Origin: Euglena gracilis
Taxonomy: Eukaryota
Direction: 5' to 3'
Assembly (NCBI GenBank): GCA_039621445.1
Contig: CP154954.1
Location: 4,330,714-4,394,713, forward strand
Length of the DNA: 64,000 nt
This document shows, piece after piece, positions 6,799 to 64,000 of this stretch. The position numbers were made by a program, and so were the translations under genes. Under the pieces are notes generated by a model. That model made no database searches. It was not told where the DNA came from and saw only the letters and a program-made list of their open reading frames with translations. How positions within the stretch are numbered: position 1 is the stretch's first letter; each line of letters starts with the position of its first letter.

Positions 6799-7646
6799 GC
6801 TGAGCTCATGGGACTTGAACGTAATGTAAATTTCACATAATTTATGATTTACACATTACACACCTGCAATTTACGGTAACTCACAATAATTTTTGAAATG
6901 TTAAAAGCTCAGCGACCCCCCCCCCAAACCCTCCTACCCCTTTTCTTGTATTTTTCGACTTTTTTCGACCCGAAAATGATCCAAAATGCAAGGGATTCGG
7001 ACCAAAAAAAGGGGCGCTGGGGGGGGGTCGAAAAAATGCTTTTCCGCATTTTCGGCTCGAAAACAGCTTTTCCGGAACCAACAGGCCAAACCATATCATT
7101 TCAGGCAATTTTATTCCAATTTTTTTCGACCCTTTTCGACCCTTTTAACCCAAAAATGGCCGAAAAAGGAACAAAGCTGTGCAAAATGGCCAAAATTGGC
7201 CGAAAAATGGCTGTAACTCGGGCTAGTTTTCGAATCACCTCCATTTGACCTCAACTCCCCACCAGGCCGAGCTTTCACCCGCGAAGGAATCCAAACTGAG
7301 TGGGATTGACCAACCCACGCTCTTCCAACTCTGCCATTTCGGTCCAAACATTGGTCAAAAAATCGATTTTTCAAAAATATCTCGAGAAAACATACATATA
7401 TTTCCGGAAATGTCAGAAAGTAGACCGTTTTCCTTGAAAATAGGCAGTTTTTGGAGCCTTTCGGCACCCTATTTTTGTGCCCCAGGTTGTGGTAGGCACC
7501 CAACTAAATATAACATGGTCACAACATTTCAAAAATTACTGTAGGTAAGCATAAATTGCAGGTGTGCAATTTGTGAATTATAAATTACGCGAAATTTGTA
7601 GTCTTTTCGGCCGTCCAGTACGTGCAAGTCCCATTAAGAGCTCAGC
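6799..7646. mobile_element. TIR element with a nested second TIR element (~6880-7544)
   Basis: Outer TIR GCTGAGCTCATGGGACTTGAACGTA / TACGTGCAAGTCCCATTAAGAGCTCAGC; inner TIR CTCACAATAATTTTTGAAATGTT / AACATTTCAAAAATTACTGTAG. Confidence 0.7.
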
Positions 7647-12402: not shown

Positions 12403-12732
12403 CAGGCTTTTGCTTAAGGACCCTGGGGGGGTACTGGCTAGCCAATCGGCTACCAACTGTAAAAAAAAAATTCCTCCGGCGCTGCGCGCCGAGGTGGAAA
12501 TGAGGTTTTTAATAGGTTTTTGGCTGATTTTGTTTCAAAAATTCCCAAAAATGGCCAAAAACGGGCATTTTTTGCCATTTTTGGGGGTCCAAAAAAATTT
12601 CCATTAGCTAGCCCTGCTGGCAGACCCTCCCCACGGGGGGTCTGCTAGAAATCCCACTAGCCAAATTTGGACTAGCTGCAGTCCAGCCCCCCCCCCCCCC
12701 GGGGGTACTGCAATCCCTTAAGCAGAAGCCTG
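12403..12732. mobile_element. hAT-like MITE (family B)
   Basis: TIR CAGGCTTTTGCTTAAGG / CCTTAAGCAGAAGCCTG; perfect 8-bp TSD GTCAGGTT. Confidence 0.9.
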
Positions 12733-15457: not shown

Positions 15458-17300
15458 AATTTACCAAGTCTCCCGGTGTAGCGCAACAGTGGAACCCTGC
15501 TGAGGAGGTTACCTAGAGGAGGTTCTGGGAAAATGGCCAAAAGTTGCCAAAAGCGCCAAGGAATAGCCCAGTCACGCCCAGTCACGCCCAGTCACGCCCG
15601 GTCATTTAATGGGTATTAAATGACTGGGCGTGCTTGGGCGTTTGTTAATGGGTGCTGGGCTTCAGGGAGGCTCCTCACATAACCAGGCCCACGGGGGCTC
15701 CAAAAATGACCAAAAATGAAGATTCCTAATTCTCTGGGACCCAGGTTTTTGTTCTTTTTGGATTCGTAAATTCGAAAGAAAAGAACAAACCCCCTTGTCC
15801 ATCACGCTGTGTCCAGAAACAAAAACAAAGAACACCTGACAATGAAATTGCGTGCACCCAAGAATGCTGAAGACACACACAGTTAGAATACAGAGTGGGG
15901 TCCGTAGGCTTGGTCCCAGGGTGTAGAGTATATTTCCCTTTAAAAAATCACCCCAGGTGTCACAAACACACAACTGTCGTGCAGAAATGGGGCCAACAGA
16001 GATAACTCCAATGCTCTTGATGTGTCCTGATAATGCAAAAAGAACATATCTGAAAGGGATTGTACAAAGGGATTTGATTGTACAAATATATATACTGCAT
16101 ATACTATATATACATATATAAAAATATATATCTATATCTCTACCTACATATACTATATAGATACTACATTTTTTACATGAAGGTTTGACATCAAAGGACT
16201 ATACAAACTTGCGATTGACCAAAGTCGTAACAAAGGCGTCAACCCAAGACGATCGAAAGAATAGAGGTCATGAACAAAACGGCCGGTTGCGGCTGGAAAT
16301 TGCGCAGCAAGGGCAACGAGGGCACAGGGGACGGGCAGAGGTTGGTTGGCTGCAGGCGTCATTTCACTTGAGAATTTTATGAGGTCATACCCAACCCCCA
16401 GCTCCAAAGCTTCTGCCAGCCCATGGGATCGCAAGCGACTGGATTTCTACTTTCTGAATCACCTCCATTTGACCCTCAACCCAAAGGGGTCCAAACCCCT
16501 TCGGATTGATGGGTTGAAGGATTGGCCCCCTCTTCTGACTCTGCCATTTCGCCGAGGTCCAAAAATCGGTCAAAAATATATTTTCCGCAAATATATCGAG
16601 AAAACATACAATATTTCCAAAAGTGTCCCGCAGACGAAATGCACCCCCCTGGAGGCCCTCTATCGCCCCTCGTTCGCCGACACGCCTGGCCCGTGTTCCA
16701 GCGTGATTTTGCGGCCCAAAACGGCAATTTTGGGGTGTTTTTAGGGCCCCGTTTTTTTTCGGTCAAAAATACATTTTTCCAAAATATCTCGAAAATGAAG
16801 CAAAAGCAAAGGAAATGTCCGGAGACCACTTTAAAATGCCCTATCCAAGGGTATTTTGATTTCCCCGCAACTCCCCGCCTAACCCGAGTTACTGCAATTT
16901 TTCGGCCAATATGGGCCATTTTGTACAGTTTTGTCCAGTTTTGACTTAGCCGTTTTAGGCCATTTTTGGAAAAAAAAATTCGAAAAAAATCAGGGAAAAT
17001 CGAAAAAAAGAAATTGGGGTATGATTACTGCCATTCAGGCAAATCAGCTGTCAGTTGAATTGGCGCTGTGATTCCCCACGGTAGATCACACTAAGGCAGG
17101 GCAAAGCAGTGAAGCCAGGAAGGGGCGAGTAGCGAGGGAGGAGGATCCATACCATTTCTGACCCATCTGTGAATTCTCGGTGTATATGTGAAGGCGGTCG
17201 AGCAACGGCCAATTTGAGGGATCTCAGGGGGTCTGCAGGTATTGGGGATTGGCAACACTTATGGTGTACATTGGTCTCATCCTTCTTAGCGAGTCGTTAA

Positions 17301-18632: not shown

Positions 18633-18903
18633 CAGGCTTCTTTTTAAGACCCCCGGGGGGGGAGGGGGGGGGGCCACCCACCCAGGGTGGCGCGGGACCC
18701 CCCCCAGGGAGGGGACCCCCCCCAAAATCGGGCCCGTTAAAGGCAATTTTCAAAAATTTTCGGCGCTTCGCGCCGAAAAGGTATACCCAGCGCCTCTGGC
18801 GCGGGACCCCCCCCCCCCCCGCGGGGGGGGCCGGCCCGGACCCACCCACCCACCCCCCTCCCCCCGGGGGGGGGGCGGGTCAGGTGACTTAAAAAGAAGC
18901 CTG
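18633..18903. mobile_element. hAT-like MITE
   Basis: Perfect TIR CAGGCTTCTTTTTAAG / CTTAAAAAGAAGCCTG; perfect TSD GTTTGGTC; empty sites at ~15908 and ~24692. Confidence 0.92.
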
Positions 18904-21900: not shown

Positions 21901-24900
21901 TCTAAGCCGCAAAATATCCAGACAAAAGGTTGTTGGAACTGTCCAAGCGATGGCATGATCGCAGCCCGGTGTTTCACAGGGGGAAAGCGGTGCATACAAC
22001 GGATGGAAGAATTGCAATGCTGAATTTTTGATGAGATTGCAGTTACAAGGGGGCTGAAATCACCACCCCACAGCAGAGTCATGGGACACGGAGTGCAGCT
22101 TAACGACCATTTTTCTCCTTGTACGGGCTTAAACTCCCCAAAAAAATGGAACCCTACGCTATAAGCAATTACAAATATGAGGGACCCCAAAAGCCGATTT
22201 TTCAGACGCCCAGACTAAAATGACTTTAATTCATTCCATCAAAACACATGCAGCCGATAGAAAATTTTCATGTTGTTGTAAAGAAAAATGGAAAAACAAT
22301 ACAAAATTTAACTACAAAAATGTAGTGCACTACAAAAAGTACATTACATTACACTACATGGTTATCACGCTACAATAATTAGTACACTACATGATTTTTG
22401 TAGTATACTATAAAAATGGAACCATGCTGGGGAGAGGAGGTTCCTGGTTAGAGGAGGTTAGAGGAGGTTCCTGGAAAATGGCCAAAAAGTTCCAAGGGTG
22501 TCAAAACAGAGCGAGTCACGCCAGTCACGTCCATTCACGCCCAGTCACACCCAACTACGCCCAGTCTTTTCCATATAGGTAGGCTTCGGGGAGCAGGGGT
22601 ACCAGGCCCACGCGGGCTCCAAAAGCGACCAAAGTTGAACATTCCAAATTATTTGGGACCCAAGCCTTTATCCTTTGCGGTTTCGTAAAATCGAAAGAAA
22701 AGAACAACCCCTCTTGTCCATCACGATGTGTCAAAAAAAACAAGGACAAAGAACACCTCACGAAGCTTTCGTGAAAGGGCCATAATAAATTTTTGAGTGA
22801 CAGGAATTCGGCAAACGTTTGACCGAAAGTATATCACAGGCGTCAACCCAGAGACAATCAAAATAATAGTGGTCACGAACAAAAAGACCGCCTGCAGCTG
22901 GTTTGGTTGCACTGCACAGGCAACAAAGGCCGAGGAGGCGGGCTGAGGCGGGTTGGCTGCAGGCGTCACTTCACCGCCGAAGAAAACATGCCATTAATTA
23001 CCATACGTATTCTTTTAGGTGCAGTTATGGCAATGGCATTCAATAATTTGCCACCCACCCCACACAGGTGGCTGTTTGAGGCAAAACATACCGGAAAATA
23101 TGGCACTGGATTCACACCCCAAAACGCTGGGGGGCACCTCCCAAACCAGGAGGGCAATCTTGAGGGGAATTCCCACACTCCCAGAAAATAACACTATAAC
23201 ACTATGTCCGCCTAAGGGGCTTCTTCTGGCAGTTTTTTTTCTTCAATGCCAAAGAACCCAACTGCAAAAAAAAACTGCTTCGGGTGCCCTCGTTTTCAGA
23301 ACAACCAAGACAAGAAAAGGCGTACACATCGAAAGGCAAAGAAACACCGGAAAATCATTAACAACCAACTGACCAATCTGTGAATTCTTGGTGTATATGT
23401 GAAGGCGGTCGAGCAACGGCCAATATGAGGGATCTCAAGGGCTGAAGGTATTAGGGATTGGCAACACTTACGGTGTACATTGATTTTATCCTCGTTAACA
23501 CTGTAACCCCCAAAAATGAGACACCCCCCAAAAATAAGACCCCAAAATTAGACCCACCCAGGCCGATCGAGCAAAATCCAAAAATAAGACCCACCCAATC
23601 CAATGATAAAGACCCCCCTGATGGCACAAAGCGCTGGAGACGTTTGAACATTTCCTGAAAAATTACCAAAACCCCCGATTTCAGACATAAAATGATGAAA
23701 TTGAAGTGCATGGCAACATGTATGTCTTTACACATGGCGCAAAGTGCCGAAGGAATATCTTTGCTGTTTTTGGTCAAGAAAAAATAAGAACCCCAAAATA
23801 AGTACCCCCTGGAGGTTTCCAGCAACGGACCCCCCCCGAAAAAGACCCGGGTCTTGCTTTGGGGGGGGGGTTAAATGGCTGCCAGAACCCTCCTCCCGTC
23901 AGAAAACTCGGTTTTGAGGTTGTTATTCACGGTGAGAAAAGGACAATTTCTGATAACAATCTGAAACTGACGCCGTTGTCAAAGCCGCAAATTGCAATGC
24001 TGAATTGATGAGATTGCAGTTACAAGGGGGCTGGAATTAAACAGCAGAGTCATGGGTCATGGAGTGCAGATCAACTCCCAAAAATGGAAGCAACCCTGCA
24101 CTATAAGCAATCACATCAGACACCCAGACACTGGTACTTTGTAATTTGTACTTTGTACTTTGTACTTTGTAAAATATGACCAAAATCTTACAAAAAAATT
24201 GTAATTTTGTAAAAATTACAAAAAGTTTTAAGCATTCCATCAAAACACATACAGCCGACATAAACATTTCAATACAAATAACGTTGTTAACAAAAATGTA
24301 AAAACCGAATGCAATTTTACCATTCTACGGGTGAGAAGGTTACCTAGAGGTTCCGAAAAAAAATGGCCCAAAAGTTGCCAAAGCGCCAAGGAAGAGCCAG
24401 TCACACCCAGTCACGCCCAAGAACGCCCAGTCATTTAATGGGTGCTGGGCTTCAGGGAGGCTCCTCAGGTAACCAGGCCCATGGGGGATCCAAAAATGAC
24501 CAAAAATGAAGATTCCTAATTCTCTGGGACCCAGGTTTTTATTCTTTTCGGATTTGTAACATTGAAACCCCTTTGTCTATGAACCTGTGTCCAGAAACAA
24601 AGACAAAGAGCAACTGCCAATAAAATTGTGTACACCCCAGGCAGTGAATGCTGAAGGCATAAAAACTTAGAATACAGAGTGGGGTCCGTAGGCTTGGTCC
24701 CAGGGTGTAGAGTATTTGATTCGAAGGGGGGATATGGCAAACAGATGTCCCTATAAAAATCACACCAGGTGTCACAAGGACACAACTGTCGTGCAGAAAT
24801 GAGGCCCGACCGGGATATGTCCTGATAATGCAAAGAGAACAAAACTGAAAAGGAAAATTAAAAGGAAGTTTATAGAAACTTTCTGACTTCTCAAAATTCA

Positions 24901-28700: not shown

Positions 28701-31700
28701 AACCTCGCCAGCAGGTCGACTGCTTTGGGTTGAATGGTTAAGGGCTTTACTACAGAGTCCCTGAAGCGCTGGGCTTCCTGCTGGTGCCCCAAATGAGTTA
28801 ATTCCTAAGTGGGGATTTGCAATAAAAAAATACAAACAATAAAATAAACAAAAACAAAACAAAAAAAACAATAAAATAAAAACAAAAAAATAAAAAAACC
28901 TGATTTTTAAATGCATTCGGGTCAAACATTGACCTTTGATCATGTTGCTCTTGGGAAGGCCCAGTCAAAACATCACAACAGTTGGCTCACTCGAGCAGAC
29001 CGACCTGGCTGGAGAACGCAGGGGAGACTTTGACACGTTGTCCACAGAGGGCCATTGTGGCTCCTTGAACAAAGATTTCATGTGAACCTGATTCCTGTCC
29101 AATTCAACACGTTTGTGTTTGCATATGCTTGACCTCCCACATGTATAACATTCAAAAACATATATTACTCTGCATGTTTAGGAGCTGGAAATCAAGATGA
29201 AATATTTGATTGAAGGGTGCAAAATCTGACCTGTTGAAGACTTTCCACAGGTGGTTGAAACTGCCCAAATTGCTCACAACCTCACGTGGCTGACAACCTT
29301 CGACATAGACGAGAGGTAAGCATGCGCCAATGCTCATGGAAACAAGCAGCAACTTTTCTTCGTCTCCCCACAGAGGGGTAAAATAGGCAGGTGCTCAGGT
29401 TGAAATAATTTCAACATTGTTTCCCACCATCTCAGGACAGAAAATGTTCATGACCACAAAGAAGCGGAACAATGTAAGAAAGGCAGATGTCACGACTGCA
29501 ATCAACAATCACCCAGACAACTCGGACAGCCAACTGTCGTTGATGAGACTGCAGAATCTTGAGCAACAGCAGACAACTGTCATTCTACCATAAAAAAAAA
29601 GGCCGTAAACCTTGATGAAAGGTTTAAAGATGAAAGGCAGGTGAAGGGAGGGTCTGCATGCGAATCACACAACGATTGTGCACATATGGGGAGGAAGACT
29701 TATCCATGTCTGGGGGGGGAGTGTACGTCCCACCCCGGCTTTTCTACTTATGCTTTCCTCCTGAAAAGTCCGTGGGGGGAGTAACAATAAAATTTGCTTC
29801 CCTTTCCCCTTTTTATTGCAAAGCACAAAGGCAAAGAGAATTGGTGGGACCGCAGTCCCTTAGCGAAAGCTTAGCGACAGTAACTGGTTCCTAATTCAAG
29901 GTTACAGGGTTTGGTGCTTTGCAATTCTCTTTTAGAATTCTGAGGGCGAAGTCCCATTTGAACAGAAGTTTTATTTCTTTTTTTTACAAAGCTCGGAGGA
30001 GAAACACCACCACCCAAATGAGCAGGGCACAAAACCAAGCGGAAATTGCCTGCACGCCGCCTGGGCCGCCTTTGAACCCGTCCACTCCACCCGCACGTTG
30101 GCGCCGCAGGGGAGCATGAGGGAGGAGACCATTTTGAGCAAGAAGAGTTACTGTCGGAGAGGGAGCTGGGAGGGAGGCGGACGCACTGGAAGAAATCATT
30201 GATTTTTCAGCTCTCGTTTTTCATTGTTCAAAATTGAAAATATTTAAGGAAAATTAAAAAGTTTAAAATTCAATAAAAATAATAATAAAACATATTTTTT
30301 TTCATTTCTTCATTTTTTCATTTTTTGATTTCCTCATTTTTTTTTAGTTCCGTTCTGCACTTCATTCATGCACCACTCTGAACAACCCCCAGATGGTTCT
30401 GTTGGAGGACGTGCACGTGGGAAACATAACATTGTGTGATGGTGGAAGGGAACTGAATGCCGAGCAAGCACCTCTGGTCAGCCATGCCCTTGGGCCCAGC
30501 ATCGCCCAGCATCGCCCAGCATCGCCCAGCATCGCCCAGCATCGCCTTTGGAGCACTATACCTACAATGCCTGCTGCTTTTGCCGCTCCACCCCACTTTT
30601 GGCTACTTTTGGCCATCTTTGGTTGCTTTTTGACCATTTTGACCAATTTTGACTGCTTTTTGACCACTTTTGCCCATATTTGCTGCCTTTTGACCAATTT
30701 TGATTGCTTCTTGACCACTTTTGCTGCTTTTTGCCCACCTTTGCCCATTTCCAACCACCTTTGCAGCTTCTTGATCACTTTTGCTGCTTTTTGACCACTT
30801 TTGGCCCCTTTTGCCTGCTTTTTGACCACTTTTGACAACTTTTGTTGCTTTTCAACCACTTTTGCCCACGTTTGCTACTTTTTGCCCACTTTTGGCCATT
30901 GTTGCAGCTTTTTGATCGCTTTCATTTTTTTTGCCCACTTTTATTGCTTTTTGACCACCTTTGCCCACTTTGCCCACTTTTTTTACCACTTTTGCTGCTT
31001 TCTGACCACTTTTACCCCACTTTTGCCTGCTTTTTGACCACTTTTTGACCACTTTTGCTGCTTTTTGTCGGCACAGGATGTGGTGCAGGCCTGTGAGATG
31101 GCAACATCGAGTGCAAGTTGCAAGCCTCTTGCCGGTCAGACAAACAAAGTCCAAAACAGTTGTTGCGCTGGAGGGTGGAGGGAGATGCATCTTGTCCACC
31201 ATCTACACGTTGTCCAGTTTCTGCATCCAGTTCATCTTGTCCAGCATCGGCATCTTGTCCAGTGTCTTGTCCACCATCTACATGTTGTCCAGTGTCTGCA
31301 TCCAGTCCATCTTGTCCAGCATCGGCATCTTGTCCAGCATCTGCATCTTGTCCAGCATCTGCATCTTGTCCAGCATCGGCATCTTGTCCAGTACCTTGTC
31401 CACCATCTGCATTTTGTCGAGTGTCTGCATCCAGTTCATCTTGTCCAGCATCGGCATCTTGTCCAGTGTCTGCATCTAGTTCATCTTGTCCAGCATCTGC
31501 ATCTTGTCCACTATCTGCCCAGTATTCATCCGTTGGCTGCTGACCAAGCCAAAATAACCACAAAAGCCCAAAAAATGGCCACAAAAAGCCCAAAAGACCC
31601 CAAAAGGCCCCAAAAAGCAACCAAAATAACCAAAAATTGCCCAAAAACACCAACAATGTCCAAAAAAGATTGTGAAAAATGACCCAAAATCACCAAAAAA

Positions 31701-32059
31701 GTGCAAAATGGCCAAAAATGCATTAAAATCTGTCTAAAAATCTCTAAAAATATCTAAAAAATGCTTCAATTCTCCAAAATATACAAAAAAATGCCAGCAT
31801 CGCCCAGCATCCCCCAGCATCGCCCTGCATCGCCCAGCAACACCCTGCATCGGAACCCCACCTCTGGTCTCCAAAAATCCAGCATCGCCCAGCATCGCCC
31901 AGCATCGCCCTGCATCGCCCAGCATCGCCCAGCATCATCAGAGGTGCTTGATGCCGAGGCAAGAAACAGAATGCAGTTGCCGCACCGAAACCGCCCCCCC
32001 CCCCCCCCCTCCCACGCCCCACCCCCCCGCCCCCCCCCCCCCCCCCCCCCTCCCCCCCG

Positions 32060-33041: not shown

Positions 33042-33472
33042 CAGGGTTCGATATAAGGACAGGTGGGGGGGGGGTGGTCCGACCCCCCCCTGCGGGCCAG
33101 GAGGGGGGGGGAGTGGGGGGGACACCCCCCCCCACCTAAACAGGTGCGCGGTCAGGGTGGCCGAATTTTCGGCCCGGCGCGAAGCGCCGGGCCGAAAATT
33201 TTTGACCCCCAAAACGACCAAAAGTGCCATTTTGGGCACTTTTTGGGCAAAAATGTGCCAAAAATGCAAAAAATTTTCGGCGCGAAGCGCCGGAGGCAAA
33301 AATTGACCCTTTTTGGGGGGGGTCAATTTTTGCCCCCGAGGGTCGGTCCGGACCCCCCTTGCAGGTGGGGGGGGGGGGTGGTCCGGAACCCCCCTGCGGG
33401 CCAGCAGGGGGGGGGGTGGGGGGGGACACCCCCCCACCTAAACCATGTACGCCCTCCTTATATCGAACCCTG
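33042..33472. mobile_element. hAT-like MITE
   Basis: Perfect 17-bp TIR CAGGGTTCGATATAAGG; perfect TSD CCCCTGGG. Confidence 0.92.
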
Positions 33473-34267: not shown

Positions 34268-37200
34268 TCATTTAAAGCCCAGGCGGAGGCTTCCATCGGC
34301 CTCAGAGCACTGTTGCGCACCTCGGTGGACTCTTCGCCGCGACCTGGAATGGAGCACTGTGGGGGGTTGCCACTGACAACGTGTCAACAGCAGCATAGAC
34401 AGCGATCGCCCACTGCATATCCAGGTTACAGTGAAGCACTCCTGGACATGGGGGACCAATGTGGTCGGACGCGACGAAAAGTTCAAAAGTTTCAGCCCCC
34501 GACTGGAACTAGGCCCGAGCTGAGGTGGATCCGAACCAGAATTTGGCACCAGAAATCGAAACTGCAAAAGTGGTCGAGAATCGCCAATTAAAATAAATAT
34601 TTTGACCCGAAAATTTGGCTGGCTAGCTGTTTCCTGCCCCCTTTTGCCAACTTCGATAGATGGGGGGGCTAGAGCTTGAAAAAGGTGGCTGGCTGGCTGG
34701 ACCCAACCCTGGGGATGGAGTTCCTGTCGGCTTCAGCAAATCCCTGTTTTGAGCCCGTTTGAAAAATCAAAAACCATTTGATAATCCCTCGTCCCTGAAA
34801 CGGTCTCCCTCATCGACGGGGGGCTGCCCACGAGAGGCCAACCCGCCTGCCGCCACCCCGGGCTGCGGTACGGTGCCCTGGACCAGCCGGACGACCTCCC
34901 CGTTCAGGTACGGGCTCTCCACCGCGACTTGCACCAGCGCCGCGAATTCCTCCGGCCGGCCGAGGCGCTTCGGGAATGGCACTGGACGCAGCAAATGGCC
35001 CGATGCTGGCTTTTGGGAAAACGTTGAGCGGTCAAGCAGACATCCTTCTCAAAAAAAAAAACGACACCCGGGTCTATTGTTTGGGCCGGTGCTCAACATC
35101 CTGGGGGTTCGTTTTTCCAGGTATTATATATGTATAATACTTATATATATGTGTAAGGAGAGAGGAGAGAGATTATATAGAGAGAGCGATAGAGGTGTTA
35201 TATATAATAATATATAGATCTAGATATATTATATAGATGATAATATATAGATAGAGATATATTGAGAGATAAGAGATATATATATATTATAATATATATA
35301 TATATATATATAGATATATATATAGATTTATATATATATATATATATATATAGTAATATATATATATATATATTATATATATATACATATTTGGATCTCC
35401 GGGGAAATTTTTCAGGAAAAAAAAGGTTAAAAAGTGCAAATTCTAACACAAATTAAATGGGCAAAAACAAAAAAGCCAAAAATGTCCCTTTGGGGCATTT
35501 TCACAACTTTAAGGGTTTAGCCTTCTCAATTCTTTCAAAAAATGCGGGGTGTCTTAATTAAATGACTTTGGTGTTTTGCTGAAAACTGAAGTGGGGCTGG
35601 AAATTTGGGTGTTTAGGGAAGGGAACTGCAACTGAACCCAGGGTGCACCAGCGAGGAAAAATACAATCCCAAATAAAATACCACATACATATATCTCACA
35701 ACTTCTTTCCTCGATTTGTTTTCACACGCAACAGAGATGACGGGGAAAGACTCAAAACAATCAATCACCATTACTGCATTTGTTTTCACCCCACCAACAC
35801 CCTTCTGAACAGCAAAAAGACTGTATGCACAATCAATTTTAAATGTGCTTTTGCCCATAAGGAATGGGAAAAATCACAAAATACTCGATCTTCGCTATGC
35901 ATACAGCCAAATTTACAAAGCCATCGTCTGGCCTGCTGGGCCAACACCTCCCGAGCCGCGGCGGGCACGGTCTCCGTCATCATCTGCGTCTCAAACATGC
36001 CGGGGGCGATCTGGAGGGGGGGGGGCGACGAAATTCATCCCAAAATTTTCGTAGGTCATATTGTGATCCCTACTCATTCGGCTTCGCAACTTTAAATAAA
36101 CACCCCAAATGTAACAGCCCCCCAAATAAAAAAAAAAATCCTCTGAGGACCTTGAAATCCCCCCCAAATATAAACCCCCCCCTCCGGCGCGAAGCGTGGG
36201 AAGGAAAGTTATATGACATAATATCTCCTCAAATTGTGATCCTTGGAAGATTTGGGAGCCCCCCAGATATAAACCCCCCGGTTTTATATTCGGAGGGAAA
36301 TTTCAAGACCCCCAGGGGCGTTTTATATTTTGGAGGGTTTTATATTCGGTCGGAAAAATCAACTTCTTGGCGGGATCCAGTAGTCGCTTTTCTTTTTAAT
36401 CACAGATACGCCCACCCTTGGGAGTCCGAACATTTCACTTTTAGGGCGAAGGAGCAAATTTCACATGTTTTTGGTAGGGGTTACGTCGCCGCATCAAGGC
36501 TACTCCAGAATTCCATCAACATGGCAAAATCGGAGAGTGGGTGGGGAGAAGTTTCTTGGGTGATTCGAAAATTACGGGGCATTTTGAATAAGTCCCGAAA
36601 AACGCAGGTTTTCCAATTGCTGCCACACCTCTTGCAAGATTTGAGCTTGGGGCCCACGTTTCAAAGGTGGCTACACTCGGGACGCCCATTGCAAAAGCCC
36701 TCCCCGTGCAGTGCAAAAGCCAGACCATGGCACACCAGACCATGACCTGAAAAGGCTTGGACTGCCCTATGGGGTTGCTCCCCCAAATCCAATGATCACT
36801 TTCCTGGGGGGAAGAAGCGGCCACAACCAGCAGAAGTGTAGACCTTAGTGGGGAGGGTCGCCCCCTTCAAAATCCGGTCACAAAAATATGCAAATGAAAA
36901 TTTTTCACTTTTTATTTCCTGGTTTGATGGGGAGGGATCAGGGGTTTTTTTTAGTCTTGGACCCCGTCCCCGGGGGGGAGGGGGGGTAAGGTGGACGGGT
37001 CTTGGACCTGGGCCTTGGACTCCCCTCCCCCCCCCCCTGGGGGCTGGGGGGGTGGGTATTGGGGCTGGTGGGTATTGGGGCTTTTTCGGGGCCGAATTAT
37101 TTTGGGGGCCCACCCCAGGGGGTGGGTGGGTGAGTGCTGACCCCCCCGGTCTTAAAAAAAAACCCTGGGAGGGATGTGACCTCTGCGCCTCAGGAGCTGC

Positions 37201-40200
37201 CTTTGGCTGAAATGCTGAAGGTTTGGCACATTTGACGAGGACCCTTAGCCACCAGGGGATTCCCCAGGTGGTGTCCCCAGATGGTCGGACCCCTGGCTGG
37301 ACAAGACCATTGCACCTCAGAAAAAACAATGGCCTGAAAGATGAAAGAAATCTGCCCAAACGAAAGCCAAGAAGGCAAATTTGGGTGGAGTGGTTGGCAT
37401 AATCAGCAGGCCACAAAATGCCAGCAATCTGGGACCAAGCTTTCCTTAACAGCCCTTGACTATCCACTGTGTGATGAAAACCTTGAAACCTCATCCCAGG
37501 TCCCAGGTGAAAATTTGGGACCAGGATCCTTTTGTTGCGCACGTGCGATTGGCACAACACGTGCCAACCCAACCGAAATGCTACATCCACAGATGGACAC
37601 CACAGAGTGCACACACCGTGACCACTCGGATGCCAAATTCACTCGAAGAAGGACAGCTGCTGGTGGCTGCTGGTGGTTCTTTGTCCAGAAATAAGCACGC
37701 CACTCTTTCTTTCAGTCCTTTGTGAGTCTGCATCCCTGGGGCACAAACCATAAGGCAAATGCTTGCACTGTACTTTGTGTCCATGACAAAACGCAGAAAG
37801 CTGGGAAATCAAAAAAAATATCCGAGTGAATCTTCAAATATCAACTTTTAATTTCAATTTAAAAATTTTTTATTAATATTCAATTTTTTTTTAATTTTAG
37901 TTAAATTTGTTTATTTTTGAAGAAGCACCACCACTTGAAGCATATACGCCTCTCACGAAACGAGCATGTGTTCAAAATGCAAAAATGAATATGCAAAACA
38001 TGCGAACAAATATGACCGTTTTTGGAGATCGTGTGTAGGGGGGGGGCAAATTCTGCAACAGAGTACCCAGCCAGAGGTTACTTTTTAAGGTGCATTAAAA
38101 AACTTAAAAAAAACCTTTAAAACCGGTTTAAAAATGTTTGGTCAAAATGCTTTAAAAAATTAAACACCTGAAAATGAAGTCACAAAATCTCGGCAAAAAG
38201 CAAGCCAACTCCGGGAAAAAAAATGATCTCTGGCATCGGTGGAAATTGTCTATCCAGGGGCAGGGAGATATTCCGGTCGGCCAAAATTTTTATTCCGGGG
38301 TTATATTCAGCTTTATTCCGGGTTATTCCGGTTTATTCCGGAATTTGTTCCAGTTTATTCTAGTCAACCTCTGCCTAAATGGACGTAAGACTTTTTGAAG
38401 TACAATTCGAGCTCACCCGGGCTTCGGGAAAAGGAACGCAATCCTTGGTTGTTCAGCCCCACCAAGTGGCCATTTTGGTCTGCACATCACAGCAGATCCC
38501 CGCCTTTTCAGGAAAAACCAGCTGATAAAAATTGGTGCACAGGGTTTTCTCTTGAGGCAGGTCCCTGGCACCATTTCCTTTTTCTACTCAAAAATTGTCC
38601 TGCTGAGTGCTTGTTGCTTGTTCCAACATGCGGTCAACTGAACGAAACCTTATAAATACTGCACTCGTTGTGCAGTGTAATGGGGTCACTTTGGCAGCGA
38701 AGCGAGATTCGACGTCCCCATTACAATACAGCATGATGCTGGCCTTCCGCAATAATGGCCTTGATGTCACACGGTTCCAATCAGGGGTTTCTTAAGGACT
38801 CTCCCCACGTCCAGCCTCCGGATGGAAAAAAAGGCTGCTGGCTGGAAACGAGCTGCTGGCTGGACCCCCCCCCCCGGGGGATAGGGGGGGGAGGGGGGGT
38901 CCGGGGCTGGAGGGGGCTGGGCTGGGCTGGGTCGATGAAAAACGAAATTTTCTGAAACATTTTTGCCTTATCGACATTTTGATGGATGGAGCTAGGTCAA
39001 GGCTGGGGGGCTGTGATGGAGGAAGCTGTGATGAGGGGAAAAATGCAGGGCAGCCCAGTTGGCCGGCCAGGTCAGCCTACAGCCGACTGGCCCGGCCTTC
39101 GGCCGGCTGGCCCAGCCTCTGGCCGGGCTGGACCCAACTTTATTTCACCCCGGGGGGCGGGCTCCCAGCCCTGCTGTCTGGCTGGACCCTCCCCCCGGGG
39201 GATAGTGTCCCCTCCGGCTTCAGAAATCCCCTGTATCCAATACGGCAGCCTTCGAAAGAACTCTCTCCGCGCAACTTATTGAAGATGGTGTTGCCAACAA
39301 TTAAGTTAGCGTTTTTCAAAAAAAAAGTCAGACCGGATGCCTAAGTTGAATTGAGTTCCTTGCGCTCAACACGGCTGGCCCCTCTCCACCACGTACCATA
39401 CTTCTCCTGTGATTGTGCACACTTCATGACCAATGTCGTTCAGCCACCCATCAAACATCACGTACAGCAAACAACCGTTTCTGCCGTCTTAAAAGCTTGC
39501 TTGATGGCCCGGAGATGCTTGTTCAACAATTTTGTCAAATTTGGGTCCAATCGCAAATCGGATGCAGACCTGGAAAAAAATCTTAACCAAAATTGAAGAA
39601 AACCCTGAACAATCCGTACACATCAGTGCACTTACGAAGGAACCCCTGATTGGAGGATGATCCACTTTGCCCAATGGGATCGCTTGCCACAAAAAACGCT
39701 GCAGTCAAATCAGCATTAATATTGCCCTTGTTCACGTCCCTTTGGAAAGCACTCAGGGAAAAACATTCACTTCTGCCTCTTGCTTCACTTCTGATACGCC
39801 AAAAAAACTATGTGTGCCCGACTGGACGTTAGTCATCGATCAAACTGAGTTGCTTTCACACCTTTATGTTTTGCAGAAGCCACGTGGTTACTATTCTAAA
39901 TTGCTTTGATGTGGTTTTAAATAACTGGGTTTCATCGTATGTCCTTTGCGAACACAAAACACTCCCTTGGGATAATCCTGAATGTGCAATCAAGCTGTCA
40001 TTGCACTCCTACATTTCGCCTTATTCACCCATCCTTTGGAAGATCTTGTCTTCTTCATTGGTGGTCCACCCTCTTCATCCGATCCATCTGACATGAGATT
40101 GACTGAGGAAAACATGAAATCACATCAAACTTCACATTCATTGCCCTTGTGTCTTGCAGAATTTTCATACCACCGGCTGGCACTTTTATTCCGGTTTACA

Positions 40201-49158: not shown

Positions 49159-52100
49159 TCACGCGTAGGAGCAGCAGCCGCCCTGCTTCTTCACAACGGG
49201 CTCGTCGTCCACAATGCGGATGCCGGCCCCCTTCCGGCCGTACACGCCGCTGCCGAGGCCCCGCGACGTCCCAGGCGGCTCTTTGGACCAGACATTCATT
49301 TAGCGTGGTGAACCACGATCTTTGTAGTGTCCACAGACGAAACACACAAACAGTTTCGCATCCACAAATGAAGTACAGGAAAATAGATATACGCCGTGTG
49401 TATATGTCTGTGTACATACACATACATTAGACGCATATTGTATATGAATGAAATATTTGCACTCGTAATACAATACGTACGGTGTTGCATGCACACGTGT
49501 CCTTGAGGACCCAGGGCGGATGCTGGCTAGGACTAGAATTTTGGGCTGGCCAACCCGCCCCAGGAGGGGGGGGAGGAGCTGGACCCTAGCTTGATATGAG
49601 CTGGGCTGGGCTCGGTCGAAATGGGGCGATTGCCAAAAATAATGACCCGCGAAACACAGTTTTGAAAAGATTGAGATCGATCTCAATCTCAGATCTGACA
49701 ACTCCCAAAAAAAAAGAACACCCAAAACACCCAAAACACACCATTTTTTGGCCATCTCTGAACACCTTTTTCCATATATACATACAACATGTACACATAC
49801 ACGCAGCGGAACACGGGAAGGATTAGAAGCATATGGACTCCTATTCCCCTATCTCCCCCAAACCACCGCCTGAGTGGGGTCATGGAGGCCTTCCGGGACC
49901 GCACTGCCACCATTCCTGCCGAATGGCCATCGATGGTGCAACAGGCCAACAAAAATCCTGAGGGGTTCCATTGCAGGCATATACGGGAAGGAAGTTAGAA
50001 TTTCAAATTAAATTGAATTTTTGCATAATTAATGGCCTGGATAAAAATGAAAATGAAAAAAAAACAATATAGGTAACTTGATTATCTCCCCAAAATAAAA
50101 CCAGATGGCTCTCTAAAGAGCAAACAAACGATGGGATCCCTGATAATATAATAAACGTTGAAAACAGCAGAAACAAAAGCAGTGCCAGCCAGATGTTTAA
50201 AATGGGATGCACGCGTGAGCCGTTCGTATGAAATTACGAAGGCATACTGCGGGTCAGGGCCACGAACGCCTCCGCCACGTTCTTGTTCAGCTTGGCGGAG
50301 GTCAGGCAGTGCTCCGCCCCCACTGACTTGCAGTACCTGCAGCGGGAAACCACCCGGTCCGACCCCCTTCGCACCCCGAGGGTTGGCTTCGTCCGGACCA
50401 TTGGAGTTGCCTTCTGCCTCCCCCCTCCCAACATAAACGCTTATTCTGGTGAAAAGCAGTGCTCGTGTTTGCCCACTGGCAGTGCTCCACCGGGACAGAA
50501 CCGCGGCATTAATGTGGAGCACGTCCCGTGATTCAAAGAGAGAGGGATGGTGCCCATCCGCCCCACCGACCAGATTCCTCCAACCCCCAGCCAGAGGGGG
50601 GGGTCATACCAGGCGGTGGTCGCACGACCAAATGCAAAAAAAAACCCCACCTTAGGTCATCTACAACCCAGGACCCGGGGGGGTTTGACGGGCAAGGGGG
50701 GTCCATACCCAACGGCGTCCTCCTGCGACACTTGCCGGTGCCGCTCCAGGTCGCACTTGTTGCCACAGACCACCACCTCGATCACACTGCCATTTTGACC
50801 CAGAAGAGATTTCAGAAGTCCCGAGATGGGACTCCCCACGGCGGAGTCCATCCGCCGTCGAAATGCACAGATGGGGGTTGAAGTTAAAGGCTTGCAAAAA
50901 CTTGTTGGCTGGTGAGGGGAAATAACCCCAACGGACCGAACCCCACAGTCGAACCATTGGCATTGGCCTCCTTTTTTGGGAACATGTAATTTATGTCCAT
51001 TTTTTTCCAACAGTGGCAAAGTCATATTTAAGAAATTTGTGCGGCAGTGTCAATGACCCCCCACCCCACGAGCAGCGAGTCACCCTGTTCCTCGGGTTCA
51101 GGGGGATTTGTTCTGGGTCGTTGGGCATCTTCTTTTGCTTCCACCTCACTTTCTTCGCCTGATGACAAAAAAAAACGGCATAACGTAAAATTTGTCCAGA
51201 CGTTGTTTGTTTGGCTTGGATGCATTTCGTTAGATAACCTATCCCCTTATGTTGTAAATTGGCTCAGAAGGCTCCGTGCGGATAATTGGCTATGACGATC
51301 CCGGAGGTCGTACCGACCATGGTCGGACCGACCTAGGTCGGGCCGACCATTGGCTATGGCCTATCGACCATTGGAGGTCGGGCCGACCTGGTCGGCCCGA
51401 CCTCCAATCATCCGCATTACCCCCCCTTTTTTGGAAATTTAAGCCCCCCCCCCCCCTCAAAATTTGATTCGGCAAATTTGACTCAAAAAGGATGGAAACA
51501 CACCTTGAAACTGTCAAAAAGCATCCCATATGATAAAAAAAAGGAAAACGCGAACTTAGTCGGTCCGGGGGGGGCTGCCGCCCCCGGACCCCCCCGCCTA
51601 AAATAACAAAATCCCCTTGTGTGTGCAAGGCAAGGATGGCCAAAACGCGCCCCCCAACAAACTCCTTTTGTGTGCCCCCAGGTAGGTAAAATAGCCCATC
51701 TGTATGTTCCACAGGGTTTGGCCAAGGGTTTTTATGCTTCTGAAATGGAAAACCATGGAGGTCGTTTCTACCGACCATAATGGTCGGTAACAAACAGGTC
51801 GGGCCGACCATGGTCTGCCCGACCTATACCGACCTATAGTCAAAAATCCTTTGAAATTTTTGAAAAAGGGGGGGGGGTAATGCGGTTAATTGGCTAGTCG
51901 GCCCGACCTCCAGTGGTCGGCCCGACCTAGGTCGGGGCGACCATGGTCGGGCCGACCAATGGTCGGGCCGACCTAGGTCGTTACGACCTCCAGGATCGTC
52001 ATAGCCAATTATCCGCCCGGGGCCGGCTCGGAAACTGCAAGGCATCAACATGCCTCTATCTTTCTCGACGTCCGGTTGATCCCAGCTTTCTAAAATCAGC

Positions 52101-54566
52101 GGGGAGGGGGGGGGCAGGGGGGCAGCCCAACGGGAAAAATATATTTCTCCGGCGCTGCACGTGGAGGTGGTCTGCACTGAAATTTCCGACTGGAATCGGA
52201 AGCTGAGGGCTTCTGATGGCGGATCCAATCATTCCGCCCATACCAGAGAAGAAACCCCACCCTGCGACCTCCCGAGGACATGGGACATGGGGGGGGGGGT
52301 CCAGCTAGTGGCTATTTTCCAGTGTCAGCAAAATGGCTAGCCATTGACTCCTGGGGTCTTTAAGGAAGAATGGGGATTCTACTCACTTCCACCTCGGAAC
52401 TAGTCCAAATTTGGACTACTGACTAATGGAAATCCTAGGGAAGGGGGGTCCGCTGGCAGGGCTAGCTAATAGAAAATATTCTTCAAGTGACCAGCGAGAA
52501 CCACCGAAAATAATTTTTGGACCCCCAAAACTGGCCAAAAATGCCCATTTCGGCCATTTTTTTTGGAACAAAATGTGCCAAAAAATATTTGATCCCCCCA
52601 CCGAGGGGTACTGCAAACCCTTAACCTGAAGCCTGCCTGCAAAAAATCCCATTTCCTCCAGAAACCCCTCCATTTTCATTTTTGGAAACCAGACAACAAA
52701 AAGAAAGACAATATTATCTGTCTGGGTTCAGGAGTGCTCATCAGGGCCACTCGGAGGGAGGGTTGTGGTTATTGTCCGGGGGTTCATTTTGATAAAGGAA
52801 AAAAGACAGCCTGTACTCGATGTCGTCCCCGACCACCGACTTCAGCTCCTTAATCCAATGCTTCACCCGCTCGAACGTGAGAACCAGGCTTCACCATATC
52901 ACCAAGGCGCCAAAATTCAGGGCAACAACATCACATCAGGAACAACAATGAACCATGAAAAAAAAAAGTTGCCACTACTACTGTTCTACGCATATGCACT
53001 AGTGCTTCCCACCCTTGTTCCAGCAGCGTAGATGGAAATAGCTGGCGGAAACGAATAATAAAGAGGATCAAATAAAAATGAATGGTGTCAGTTCTCTCGA
53101 GGGCACAAAGACAACCTGAGCCTTGAACCAGAGAGGGGGGATCGGAAGGAGGCATTTGCTTAAGGACCCCGGGGGGGGGGGGTCCGGGGGTGCCCCGGAC
53201 TGGAAAAAAAATTTACCCCAACGCTGCGCGCGGAAGGAAAAATGAGGTTTTAATAGGTTTTTGGCTGATTTTGCTCCAAAAATTCCCAAAAATGGCCAAA
53301 AACGGGCATTTTGGGCCATTTTTGGGGGTCCGAAAAAAATTTTCGGCGCTTCGCGCCGGTCACTGGAAAAAAAAAATTCCACTAGCTGGCCCTGCTAGCA
53401 GACCCCCCCGGGGGGGGGGTCTGCTAGAAAGCCAAATTTGGACTAGCTGCCCCCCCCCGGGGGGGGTACTGCAATCCCTTAAGCAAATGCCTGATCGGAA
53501 GCCGTGTGTGAACAACAGCTAGTACAAAACACAGGAAAAGTGCTGGCGACAGGAGCGGCGAGCAAGAAGCCAGGGGTGGTCCGGGAACAAGGAAGGAGAG
53601 GCCTGATCTCAGCGTCGGTGATGTCGTACACGAGCAACGCGCCTGGTGGGGCGGACACTCAGGGAGTCGCAACGAACACAACGCAACACAATGTAATCCG
53701 ATGTGCATTGGAATAGAAATGGAGCCCGAGAATATGAAATGGAAAAAGAAGAAGATGGCGTGAGAAGCCCCCCTGGGTGAAGAGGGTGGGGCGGGAGTGG
53801 GGACGGGGGCGGAGAATACCGTTGGCGTCGCGGTAGTAGATGGGCCCGAGGGCGTGGAACCGCTCTTGGCCAGGGCTGTGCGGGTGGTCATCCAGAGTCC
53901 CAAACCCAGTTACGCCCAATCACGCCCAATCACGCCCCATCATTTTATCGGTGCTTCGTGGCGGCGATCGACCACCGTCACCCATTGGGGTTTCGGGCAT
54001 TCATTCCCGCACAGCCCTGTTCCTGGCCAGCGGTGTCCCAGATAGCGATGGTGACTACCTGGTCCTCGATCTGCAGCCGCTTCTTGGAGTACATGTTGGC
54101 CTACGGGGCCCAACCGGAGACGATTGGGGCAGAGTGCTAGGCAAAGAGTTGAAGAATGGCAAAAAAAAAAAAGACTCAGAATTACACACAGATGGAAAGA
54201 TTGCTTTACAAGAGGCTGCGAAGCGGTTTTTTTTTACGTTTTTCTGGCTGAAGATATAAAAAAAACCAAAAATTTCAAATGGCCAAAAGACTTGTCGTGC
54301 AAATAAAGGGCAATATGTCGCACAAATAAACACCTGCACCGGATGATTGAAAAAAACTCAAACATTCCAGTGTGCATTTCTTGTTCTGCACATGGAACAG
54401 AAACGTACAGGGGTCTCACAAAAGAAACAGGCGGGAAAAACAAAACACAAACCTGCACTGTGGTTTGCTCCTTTTCAGAAAAGTCATCCACGGTGTACCG
54501 CCGGACGAGGGAAGTCTTACCCACTCGGCCCTCTCCGAGCAGGCAGATCTTGTAGTGGTCCGACAT
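49159..54566 (-). CDS. RAB21: Rab21 small GTPase, 9 exons, 218 aa
   Basis: Exons: 54453-54566, 54023-54100, 53820-53865, 53609-53642, 52817-52879, 50709-50777, 50248-50336, 49876-49915, 49159-49282 (sum 657 nt). Motifs GEGRVGKTSL, WDTAGQERFHALGPIYYR (Rab21-type), GNKCDL, TSAK, and C-terminal CCSYA prenylation signal. Confidence 0.93.
49283..49875 (-). other. Nonconventional intron (RAB21 intron 8)
   Basis: ACT-CAGGCG ... TGTCTG-GTCCAA (N6 variant); needed to reach the CCSYA terminal frame; junction +/-2 nt. Confidence 0.6.
50778..52816 (-). other. Intermediate/nonconventional intron (RAB21 intron 5)
   Basis: GTA-CAGGCTGTC ... GGCAGTGTG-ATCGA; GT start but no in-frame AG end; ATCGAG repeated at both junctions. 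Confidence 0.8.
51274..52020. mobile_element. Long-TIR (foldback-like) element in RAB21 intron 5
   Basis: ~45-bp TIR GCGGATAATTGGCTATGACGATCCCGGAGGTCGTACCGACC followed by arrays of GGTCGG.CCGACC at both ends. Confidence 0.8.
52880..53608 (-). other. Nonconventional intron (RAB21 intron 4)
   Basis: GAT-CAGGCCTC ... GAAGCCTG-GTTCT; removal gives DITDADTFERV. Confidence 0.8.
53149..53493. mobile_element. hAT-like MITE (family B) in RAB21 intron 4
   Basis: GAGGCATTTGCTTAAGG / CCTTAAGCAAATGCCTG; perfect TSD ATCGGAAG; similar to 12403-12732. Confidence 0.9.
53866..54022 (-). other. Nonconventional intron (RAB21 intron 2)
   Basis: GAA-CAGGGCTGTGCGGG ... CCCGCACAGCCCTG-GCCAA; perfect 14-bp terminal inverted repeat; removal gives WDTAGQ|ERF. 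Confidence 0.9.
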
Positions 54567-54568
54567 CG

Positions 54569-54612
54569 CTGCAAAAATTGCATAACACAAACGTAACAAA
54601 ATAAAAGAGAGT
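54569..54612 (-). promoter_or_regulatory. Probable spliced-leader trans-splice acceptor for RAB21
   Basis: U-rich tract ending TTTTTGCAG 2 nt before the ATG; SL trans-splicing is established in Euglenozoa. Confidence 0.45.
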
Positions 54613-55021: not shown

Positions 55022-63575
<8,554 letters not shown>

Positions 63576-63972: not shown

Positions 63973-64000
63973 CAGGCATTTGCTTAAGGACCCCGGGGGG
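63973..64000. mobile_element. Left end of a family B MITE, truncated by the window edge
   Basis: CAGGCATTTGCTTAAGGACCCCGGGGGG matches the family B terminus. Confidence 0.75.

Follow-up and report, generated by a model that had tools for sequence, protein, structure and literature searches.

Nonconventional introns of euglenids have reportedly been described by Milanowski et al. in 2014 and 2016 and by Gao et al. in 2024. The class has been defined genetically, and the Euglena nonconventional code derived by knock-in mutagenesis is 5'-N3CDG-/-CH'GN5-6|R (Nomura et al., 2025; PMC12501133). Passages of the same paper state that nonconventional splicing depends on base pairing that follows CAG and precedes CTG, and that nonconventional introns are most of the introns in Euglena, with 71.8% in E. 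agilis. The logos of E. gracilis nonconventional introns given in part of PMC11170887 read CCAGG/CCTG. For the tubA introns, release as full-length circular RNA has been reported, as cited in passages of PMC11282704 and PMC12501133. A MITE-like origin of nonconventional introns, together with TSD-like repeats at their junctions, has already been proposed in parts of several papers (PMC3935182, PMC6221363, PMC11282704, PMC12501133).

The Rab21-Type Gene and Its Interruption

The window, that is, the whole stretch of Euglena gracilis DNA analysed here (64 kb), was compared with RNA reads and DNA contigs from four sequencing runs. A minus-strand gene in it (Table 1) encodes a Rab21-type GTPase, and its coding sequence is split between the Q and the E of WDTAGQE, with ...AIWDTAGQ and ERFHALGPIYYRDAN on the two sides of the gap. 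When the Rab21 ortholog P0004 was used as a tblastn query, its matches gave exon 2 (54100..54023) and exon 3 (53865..53820); the exons of the gene share 75–95% identity with this ortholog, and all remaining ones are intact and in phase relative to it. Among solved structures, P0004 matches Rab-21 chains best (E = 9e-59; Rab5, 1e-39). Because the GT..AG intron at 54452..54101 is intron 1, the 157-nt interruption is intron 2. The sequence-only reading had given it the same number in Rab21 and had seen it split the conserved WDTAGQE motif, and both points are borne out by intron 1 and by the tblastn exons. Introns 1, 3, 6 and 7 of the gene are of the GT-AG type and four are nonconventional, and high-copy repeats also lie in introns 4 and 5.

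The exons are covered by RNA reads, and the spliced-leader end falls at the AG preceding the start codon: in run X21, 12 RNA reads extend beyond 54569 by a 10-nt loose end that looks, on the gene strand, like the T-rich end of a leader. This is a real gene and it is expressed, its mRNA being trans-spliced and freed of intron 1. With intron 2 retained, a stop follows 14 codons past the Q of WDTAGQ (ORF 53978..54100), and homology of the protein would require that this intron be removed from the mRNA. Of 402 joints in the reads, the 15 listed all lie in high-copy repeats, and no back-joint of intron 2, as a circular RNA would give, is among them. No spliced Rab21 protein of Euglena gracilis was returned by protein searches, which matched only P0001, the exon 1 read-through ORF, and the orthologs of other species; a metagenome scan for Rab21 loci gave 80 generic small GTPase loci, with 39–70% identity over the P-loop exon, and no close euglenid; these loci were set aside.

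Table 1. Positions of the Rab21-type gene features, of intron 2 and its parts, and of the CAGG...CCTG elements in the window.
Feature	Position	Strand	Basis or remark
Exon 1	54453..54568	-	Start codon 54566..54564; spliced-leader acceptor AG at 54570..54569
Intron 1, conventional GT..AG	54101..54452	-	RNA depth 0 in bin 54157-54347
Exon 2, 26 codons, last residues ...WDTAGQ	54023..54100	-	tblastn of P0004
Intron 2 (nonconventional, 157 nt)	53866..54022	-	Only placement matching the published code
Exon 3, first residues ERFHALGPIYYRDAN	53820..53865	-	tblastn of P0004; followed by GT..AG intron 3 at 53819..53643
Upstream 8-nt flanking repeat copy GCCAGGAA	54020..54027	-	First 5 nt exonic, last 3 nt are the intron 5' spacer
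Terminal stem, 5' arm (RNA sense), beginning with CAG at intron +4 to +6	54006..54019	-	Base-paired in both folds, minimum-free-energy and centroid
Interior segment in common with a high-copy dispersed repeat	53887..53957	.	Includes three 10-bp units at 53905-53942; TRF row 53912-53942
Terminal stem, 3' arm (RNA sense), ending with CTG at intron -8 to -6	53871..53884	-	Inverted-repeat pair and fold
Downstream 8-nt flanking repeat copy GCCAAGAG	53863..53870	-	First 5 nt are the intron 3' spacer, last 3 nt exonic
High-copy CAGG-type MITE in intron 4, for calibration only	53149..53493	.	Perfect 8-bp duplication, 53141-53148 and 53494-53501
CAGG...CCTG-ended elements duplicating 8 bp	12403-12732, 18633-18903, 33042-33472, 36939-37167, 53149-53493

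Borders and Stem of Intron 2

The 157-nt gap can be placed in 13 ways that give the same protein, and 53866/54022 is one of these. The end dinucleotides of the 13 placements are CT..CC, TG..CC, GG..CT, GC..TG, CC..GG, CA..GC, AG..CC, GG..CA, GA..AA, AA..AG, AC..GA, CA..AG and AG..GC. A conventional or intermediate intron is ruled out, as GT/GC-AG ends occur in 0/13 of them, and AT-AC ends likewise in none. At 54022 the 5' border consists of GAA (3 nt) followed by CAG, and on the 3' side the CTG at 53873..53871 is followed by a spacer of 5 nt, GCCAA, and by the exon base G at 53865. Inward from the two motifs the pairing is continuous over 14 bp, and both the CCAGG/CCTG logos of E. gracilis and the knock-in-defined code are matched. 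Judged by its borders and stem, intron 2 is an ordinary euglenid nonconventional intron, a member of a class already described.

The inverted-repeat arms, of 14 nt each, are 100% complementary (14/14) and lie 121 nt apart, and the element measured from arm to arm is short (149 bp) and non-coding. The RNA of the intron with 10 nt of flank folds at -79 kcal/mol (z = -3.43), a value equalled by none of the shuffles (0/200). Perfect inverted repeats started by CAG reach at least 14 bp three times in the real window (14, 16 and 18 bp), and 30 dinucleotide-shuffled versions of the window gave none longer than 12 bp within 3 kb. Stems in the other nonconventional introns of the gene measure 5–9 bp, compared with the 14 bp of intron 2. 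A longer imperfect inverted repeat past these 14 bp was tried and rejected, the end-alignment score of 8 being equal to the shuffle mean (8.0 ± 3.5).

Removal from the transcript may be pictured from these elements. Pairing of the 14-nt arms in the pre-mRNA would set both exon ends side by side. The nonconventional splicing machinery would cut 3 nt upstream of CAG and 5 nt downstream of CTG, and the Gln codon ending at 54023 would be joined to the Glu codon starting at 53865, restoring WDTAGQE. The exact cut sites are those predicted from the published code taken together with protein homology.

The Flanking Repeat and the CAGG...CCTG Elements of the Window

The stem is flanked by GCCAGGAA and GCCAAGAG, which are identical at 6/8 positions and were also detected as a direct repeat with a spacing of 157. 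A 157-nt intron with a perfect 14-bp TIR (53871-53884, 54006-54019) and 8-mers agreeing at 6/8 on its two sides had been pointed out before, and these details were recovered without change. Two random 8-mers compared in a fixed register agree at 6/8 or more with a probability of 0.0042. Introns 4 and 8 of the gene, viewed by eye in the same 8-nt register, agree at only 3/8 and 2/8. The 6/8 repeat of intron 2 falls within a conserved coding motif and does not by itself prove a target-site duplication.

In the window, there are 322 pairs of CAG...CTG perfect inverted repeats of at least 7 bp within 3 kb. At k = 8 their flanking direct repeats are perfect in 4 cases, have one mismatch in 2 and two mismatches in 3, and at k = 5, 6 or 9–12 no perfect flanking repeat occurs among the 322 pairs. 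When perfect 8-bp direct repeats around inverted ends of at least 10/12 were sought without further condition, 83 rows resulted, of which 76 were read as lying in arrays of AT dinucleotides, in a pair of poly-C tracts or in a tandem array that is palindromic; five of the seven that remain start with CAGG (one with a mutated first base). MITE arms in the window are 11–18 bp long. The elements 18633-18903 and 33042-33472, with perfect arms of 16 and 18 bp and 8/8 flanks, split no recognisable coding sequence, and paralogous copies without the element 18633-18903 have its 8-mer only once, which represents the empty site. Members of the 12403-12732 family are extremely abundant, and one copy, flanked by 8/8 repeats, lies within intron 4 of the Rab21-type gene. 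Reads and contigs have loose ends exactly at 53150 and 53493 in this copy, and the summed DNA-contig depth is ~1.9 million vs. ~90.

The MITE families of the window have the motif ...TTAAGGAC in common, and a subterminal ...AAGGAC is found in the CAGG elements; intron 2 is without these. Membership of the intron 2 arms in the CAGG families of the window was ruled out, CAGGG being all that they have in common. No transposase was found in the window, with 0 Pfam families in 37 of the 49 ORFs of at least 170 aa.

Copy Number of the Arms and the Interior

In the 64-kb window there is no further copy of the intron 2 arms at one mismatch or less, and three lone matches with 2/14 mismatches have no partner. 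A blastn search of the window with intron 2 recovered only the interior part with the 10-bp repeats, at 82–86% over 48–50 nt (15567, 18330 and 24397). The DNA contigs of run X1 reach a summed depth of 15,000–46,000 at 53903-53929, compared with ~90 in the single-copy flanks. RNA reads from other loci begin to match at 53887, the point just inside the arm at which the sequence of those loci departs, and only 53887-~53957 of the intron is high-copy. Adjoining the 5' arm, the DNA-contig depth sums to 224 at position 53999 and is made up of two contig forms (86.5 + 137.5), one of which has a 4-nt deletion; intron 2 is present in both, and a second run gave the same result. A likeness between the interior and the 1486-bp element 30465-31950 was suggestive by eye and by a score that is prone to effects of composition (23 vs. 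11.8 ± 3.6). The 12-nt end motif of that element is not enriched in the window, with 52 matches vs. 52 expected, and the link stands only as a lead.

Origin and Age of Intron 2

With a probability of roughly 0.6, intron 2 is a working nonconventional intron that most probably goes back to an inserted short CAGG...CCTG DNA transposon and that is not demonstrably recent. On inserting, this transposon would have duplicated 8 bp of target sequence. One copy of this duplication would be made up of the 3 + 5 nt that leave with the element, and excision from the RNA would erase the insertion precisely, because what is removed amounts to exactly one duplication copy. The spacers of the code, 3 + 5, can be equated with an 8-bp duplication since the CAGG...CCTG elements of the window carry perfect 8-bp duplications, and it is on these elements that the most probable origin of intron 2 in a transposon is calibrated. 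The stem, together with the flanking repeat, resembles a scar left by a transposon that inserted long ago. Other observations count against a transposon origin: the arms have no second copy in the window, CAGGG is the only shared sequence, the ends are no more alike than shuffles past 14 bp, p is only 0.004 for the repeat, introns 4 and 8 are without an 8-nt repeat, and no transposase was found in the 37 ORFs scanned.

Recency is not demonstrable for the insertion, as the arms are private to the locus, the flanks have decayed to 6/8 and the interior carries a piece of an unrelated or loosely related high-copy repeat. The perfect stem dates nothing, because splicing needs the stem. The sequence-only reading had taken intron 2 for a young transposon-derived intron with a TSD predicted at the two 8-mers, and for the best-preserved MITE-to-intron intermediate in the window; it did not mention that such introns form a described euglenid class for which a MITE origin is already in print. 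Its transposon-like ends and 8-nt register stand, the latter agreeing with the 4 perfect repeats of 322 pairs at k = 8 and with the empty-site paralog. The term MITE, which presupposes many copies, does not suit the element as a whole, the window holding no second copy of its arms. Youth is not supported, with two substitutions in the flanking repeat and the intron present in both contig forms, the stem being no clock. As to preservation, 18633-18903 and 33042-33472 surpass it in arms (16 and 18 bp) and flanks (8/8), though they split no recognisable coding sequence.

Intron 2 might instead be an ordinary nonconventional intron without transposon ancestry, in which the stem exists for splicing and the repeat stems from another route of gain, e.g., staggered double-strand break repair with filler DNA, or is a chance "slidable" repeat of the sort found at most Euglena introns. 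Short direct repeats are common at E. agilis introns and flank 84.4% of all of them, including conventional ones, and the pairing required for splicing implies that selection alone can keep a stem (passages of PMC12501133); a link to DNA repair has been raised in print (in part of PMC6221363). The arms are unique to the locus, and an 8-nt repeat is missing from introns 4 and 8 of this gene, as would be fitting. Such an origin is nevertheless unlikely, given a repeat in the exact 8-nt register used by bona fide insertions in the window, arms that begin with CAGGG as those elements do, and a stem of 14 bp that exceeds the 5–9 bp of the other introns of the gene and lies inside the 11–18 bp range of the MITEs.

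A recent intron gain, in which a young MITE copy is seen shortly after landing in an exon, is quite improbable. Intron 2 has 2/8 flank positions substituted, whereas the flanks are 8/8 at demonstrable insertions of the window; its arms have 0 sister copies in 64 kb, just two contig forms adjoin the 5' arm, both with the intron, and high copy is limited to 53887-~53957, other loci departing at 53887. [quoted passage not shown] It is hardly credible that the 157 nt are no intron and represent an insertion that disrupts a non-functional allele or pseudogene of Rab21, since the remaining exons are intact and keep the phase of the ortholog, the mRNA is trans-spliced with intron 1 removed, and the insertion has every element of the splicing code and is carried by both contig forms; in its favor, no junction read is among the 15 of 402 joints listed.

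The origin in a CAGG...CCTG insertion leads to a wider proposal, which we offer tentatively and at not quite even odds. The 3- and 5-nt spacers may mirror the 8-bp duplication of a recognisable and recently mobile CAGG...CCTG family, nonconventional splicing may be a host system for the removal of such elements, and intron 2 may be a fossil of one. Splicing would remove the insertion and exactly one copy of the duplication, and in the fossil each position of the 8-mer would have one unconstrained intronic copy free to drift. Passages of PMC12501133, PMC11282704, PMC3935182, PMC6221363 and PMC12621601 state the MITE idea and the "TSD-like" repeats, but not the 8-bp length or the 3 + 5 equality. 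A literature search joining Euglena, hAT, transposase and intron found no paper.

Comparison With Known Systems

DNA transposons of the hAT superfamily make 8-bp target duplications and have short inverted ends of the YARNG type, and the P and Merlin superfamilies also make 8-bp duplications. The CAGG elements of the window resemble hAT in their 8-bp duplication (6/8 in intron 2 itself) and in the CAGGG end. They differ from it in that no transposase was found in the window (0 Pfam families in 37 long ORFs), and the superfamily is left unassigned, as P and Merlin likewise give 8 bp. With these elements intron 2 shares the CAGG/CCTG ends, the 8-nt register and a similar size (149 bp vs. 229–431 bp), whereas they have 8/8 flanks, multiple or very many copies and the ...AAGGAC motif, and interrupt no recognisable coding sequence.

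Like the MITEs and introners of Micromonas, dinoflagellates and others, which are treated in passages of a review (PMC11282704), the element is short and non-coding and has terminal inverted repeats and a flanking repeat at the place of a TSD. As in transposon-derived introns, part of the duplication would serve in its excision from the RNA. Unlike introners, it would be excised without spliceosomal GT/AG sites from the element or from the duplication, and, whereas MITEs and introners are known by many near-identical copies, the intron 2 element as a whole occupies a single locus.

Intron 2 alone is one more example of the nonconventional class, and its value is that of a worked example. A single 64-kb window holds a coding intron that obeys the code, CAGG...CCTG elements with 8-bp duplications, and a filled site together with its empty-site paralog. 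The MITE-origin hypothesis for nonconventional introns thereby becomes testable genome-wide with existing data, and the elements of the window suggest why the code has spacers of 3 and 5 nt. The closest likeness is to the euglenid nonconventional introns themselves. Intron 2 has borders other than GT/AG, as they do, with CAG in positions +4 to +6, CTG in positions -8 to -6, spacers of 3 and 5 nt, a purine as the first base of the next exon, a terminal stem joining the ends and conventional introns in the same gene, and its junction is slidable because of the direct repeat. There is no difference in kind, a perfect stem of 14 bp being long for this gene.

The Rab21-Type Host Gene

Intron 2 interrupts a minus-strand small-GTPase gene whose exons are 75–95% identical, in the alignment, to the 211-aa euglenozoan Rab21 ortholog P0004, which served as the tblastn query. 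Rab-21 chains are the best solved relatives of this protein (E = 9e-59), followed by Rab5 (1e-39), and close protein matches are named Rab-21 in the source records. The organism's own spliced Rab21 protein was not found in searches of protein databases. At the gene start, 12 RNA reads of sequencing run X21 extend immediately past the AG at 54570..54569; their overhanging 10 nt are T-rich on the gene strand, and we read them as a spliced leader, which we take to be the Euglena leader. Judged by eye, introns 1, 3, 6 and 7 are of the GT-AG type and those numbered 2, 4, 5 and 8 nonconventional. Stem length is 14 bp in intron 2, 5 bp in intron 4, about 9 bp (imperfect) in intron 5 and 7 bp in intron 8.

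Features of the Rab21-type gene and inverted-repeat elements in the window
Feature	Position	Strand	Description
Start codon	54566..54564	-	
Exon 1	3' limit 54453	-	
Intron 1	54452..54101	-	GT..AG; RNA depth zero in middle bin
Exon 2	54100..54023	-	C-terminal end ...AIWDTAGQ
Exon 3	53865..53820	-	first residues ERFHALGPIYYRDAN
271-bp element	18633-18903		16-bp perfect CAGG...CCTG arms; 8/8 flanking duplication
Short CAGG-ended element	12403-12732		flanks 8/8
Short CAGG-ended element	33042-33472		flanks 8/8
Short CAGG-ended element	36939-37167		flanks 8/8
Short CAGG-ended element	4019-4477 (second copy 38782-39233)		flanks 7/8
Short CAGG-ended element	4301-4488		flanks 8/8
Copy of the 12403-12732 family	53149-53493		inside Rab21 intron 4; perfect 8-bp duplication (8/8); first base mutated on one arm
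1486-bp element	30465-31950		8-bp flanking repeat; 12/12 arms with CAAG start

Splicing Class of Intron 2

The sequence-only reading had described a perfect 14-nt inverted repeat, flanking 8-mers with six identical positions and a split WDTAGQE motif, and these observations were confirmed. The arms (53871-53884 and 54006-54019) are fully complementary, the 8-mers directly outside them agree at 6/8 positions, and the motif is divided between exons 2 and 3 (see table). When the window was dinucleotide-shuffled 30 times, CAG-started perfect inverted repeats within 3 kb reached at most 12 bp, and a match of at least 6/8 between two 8-mers in a fixed register has a chance of p = 0.0042. A folding energy of -79 kcal/mol (z = -3.43) was computed for the RNA of the intron, and translation through its 157 nt would meet a stop 14 codons past the Q.

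Thirteen placements of the 157-nt gap keep the protein, and GT/GC-AG ends occur in none of them (0/13). Only 54022..53866 starts with 3 nt plus CAG and ends with CTG plus 5 nt before a purine exon base. In the available text of Nomura et al. (PMC12501133), the Euglena signature 5'-N3CDG-/-CH'GN5-6|R was set by knock-in mutagenesis: splicing was lost upon mutation of CAG or CTG, spacers of 3 nt (5') and 5 (or 6) nt (3') were obligatory, and base pairing inward of the CAG/CTG motif was required. The same text gives 71.8% of Euglena agilis introns as nonconventional and 84.4% as having flanking direct repeats, which make the border 'slidable'. Save at +3, intron 2 also matches CCAGG (+3 to +7) and CCTG (-9 to -6), the logos given for E. 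gracilis in PMC11170887. This agreement of placement and ends with the published code and logos argues for a standard nonconventional intron, of a class already known.

Intron 8 (window ~49868 and ~49270) has a 7-bp CAG...CTG stem, is in frame only with a 3' spacer of 4 or 7 nt, against the 5-6 of the code, and lacks an 8-nt flanking repeat (2/8). At 51290-52060, intron 5 contains palindromic 15-bp tandem units of the GGTCGG.CCGACC type, along with further sequence that is very high-copy.

Age and Copy Number

Intron 2 had further been called young and the best-preserved example in the window; neither description was borne out. Its flanking repeat carries two substitutions, versus zero in the demonstrable insertions of the window, and since splicing depends on the stem, a perfect stem is a poor guide to age. 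As for preservation, the 271-bp element at 18633-18903 has longer arms and an unbroken flanking duplication. No sister copies of the arms occur in the window, where the best other matches have 2/14 mismatches and are isolated. One such 12/14 copy stands alone at 55186-55199, which is some 600 nt upstream of the gene; no inverted counterpart lies close to it.

Contigs of both DNA runs span intron 2. Beside the 5' arm, at 53999, the DNA-contig depth of 224 is the sum of only two contig forms, at 86.5 and 137.5, one of which lacks 4 nt; the second run has the same deletion form, at a depth of 12.8/19.9. High copy is confined to 53887 to ~53957, where local DNA-contig depths reach 15,000-46,000, 51-96 contigs carry the family consensus letter at four positions, and the interior is 82-86% identical over 48-50 nt to a repeat at 15567, 18330 and 24397. 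It is also at 53887, two bases into the arm, that the match to RNA reads from other loci breaks off. In the window and the DNA contigs, the complete element therefore lacks the many copies expected of a MITE, and its make-up looks composite or, failing that, old. Its interior resembles the end of the 30465-31950 element, and RNA reads of other loci have a similar end motif immediately before the part shared with the interior.

Proposed Transposon Origin

As a calibration set, 322 perfect CAG...CTG inverted repeats of at least 7 bp and within 3 kb were collected in the window. Adjoining direct repeats were enriched at exactly 8 nt, with four perfect, two one-mismatch and three two-mismatch cases, intron 2 being one of the last; about 0.005 perfect flanks were expected by chance, versus the 4 observed. 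Perfect repeats numbered zero at k = 5, 6 and 9-12 and one at k = 7. A search without the CAG condition, for perfect 8-bp repeats around inverted ends of at least 10/12, gave 83 rows; 76 of them were left out because they belonged to arrays of AT dinucleotides, to a poly-C pair or to a palindromic tandem array, and five of the remaining seven started with CAGG.

The 18633-18903 element sits in one copy of a segmental repeat and is missing from two paralogous copies (near 24691-24704 and ~15.9 kb), which carry a single 8-mer there, a filled site against empty sites. The copy in intron 4 is of an extremely abundant CAGG type: its DNA-contig depth sums to ~1.9 million versus ~90 in single-copy flanks (summed depth is not copy number), DNA and RNA reads and contigs from other loci break exactly at 53150 and 53493, and partial copies lie at 52514-52635 and 63973-64000. 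DNA contigs also join 52512-52522 to 53333-53369 on opposite strands. Several short CAGG-ended elements have in common a subterminal ...TTAAGGAC... motif, after which come G/C runs, and 10-bp-unit arrays lie directly inside both arms of 30465-31950. Tandem repeats of 10-bp period are strikingly frequent window-wide (e.g., 7123-7146, 15566-15604, 30494-30546, 30628-31057 and 31794-31936).

From the calibration, the empty sites and the abundant intron-4 family it follows that the genome contains short CAGG...CCTG-ended elements duplicating 8 bp, and the ends of intron 2 are built alike and lie in the same register. The proposed transposon derivation is partly supported, and it was sharpened by the MITEs of the window itself. 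At flank position 6, the first exon base under the code, ten elements including intron 2 have a purine in 10/10 cases on the plus strand and 7/10 on the other (a small sample, by eye). The 'purine exon start' rule might partly be a target preference.

A scan of 37 of the 49 ORFs of at least 170 aa in the window found no transposase, so no superfamily was assigned, and a literature search combining Euglena, hAT, transposase and intron returned no paper. With 8 bp and a YARNG-type end, the elements have what we take to be a hAT-like look. A MITE-like origin of nonconventional introns is a published hypothesis in the available text of PMC3935182, PMC6221363, PMC11282704, PMC12621601 and PMC12501133; neither the 8-bp length nor its equality with 3 + 5 was found in the available parts of this literature, whose supplements may hold relevant logos. 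The 3-nt and 5-nt spacers of the code together have the length of one 8-bp duplication, so excision under the code would exactly undo such an insertion.
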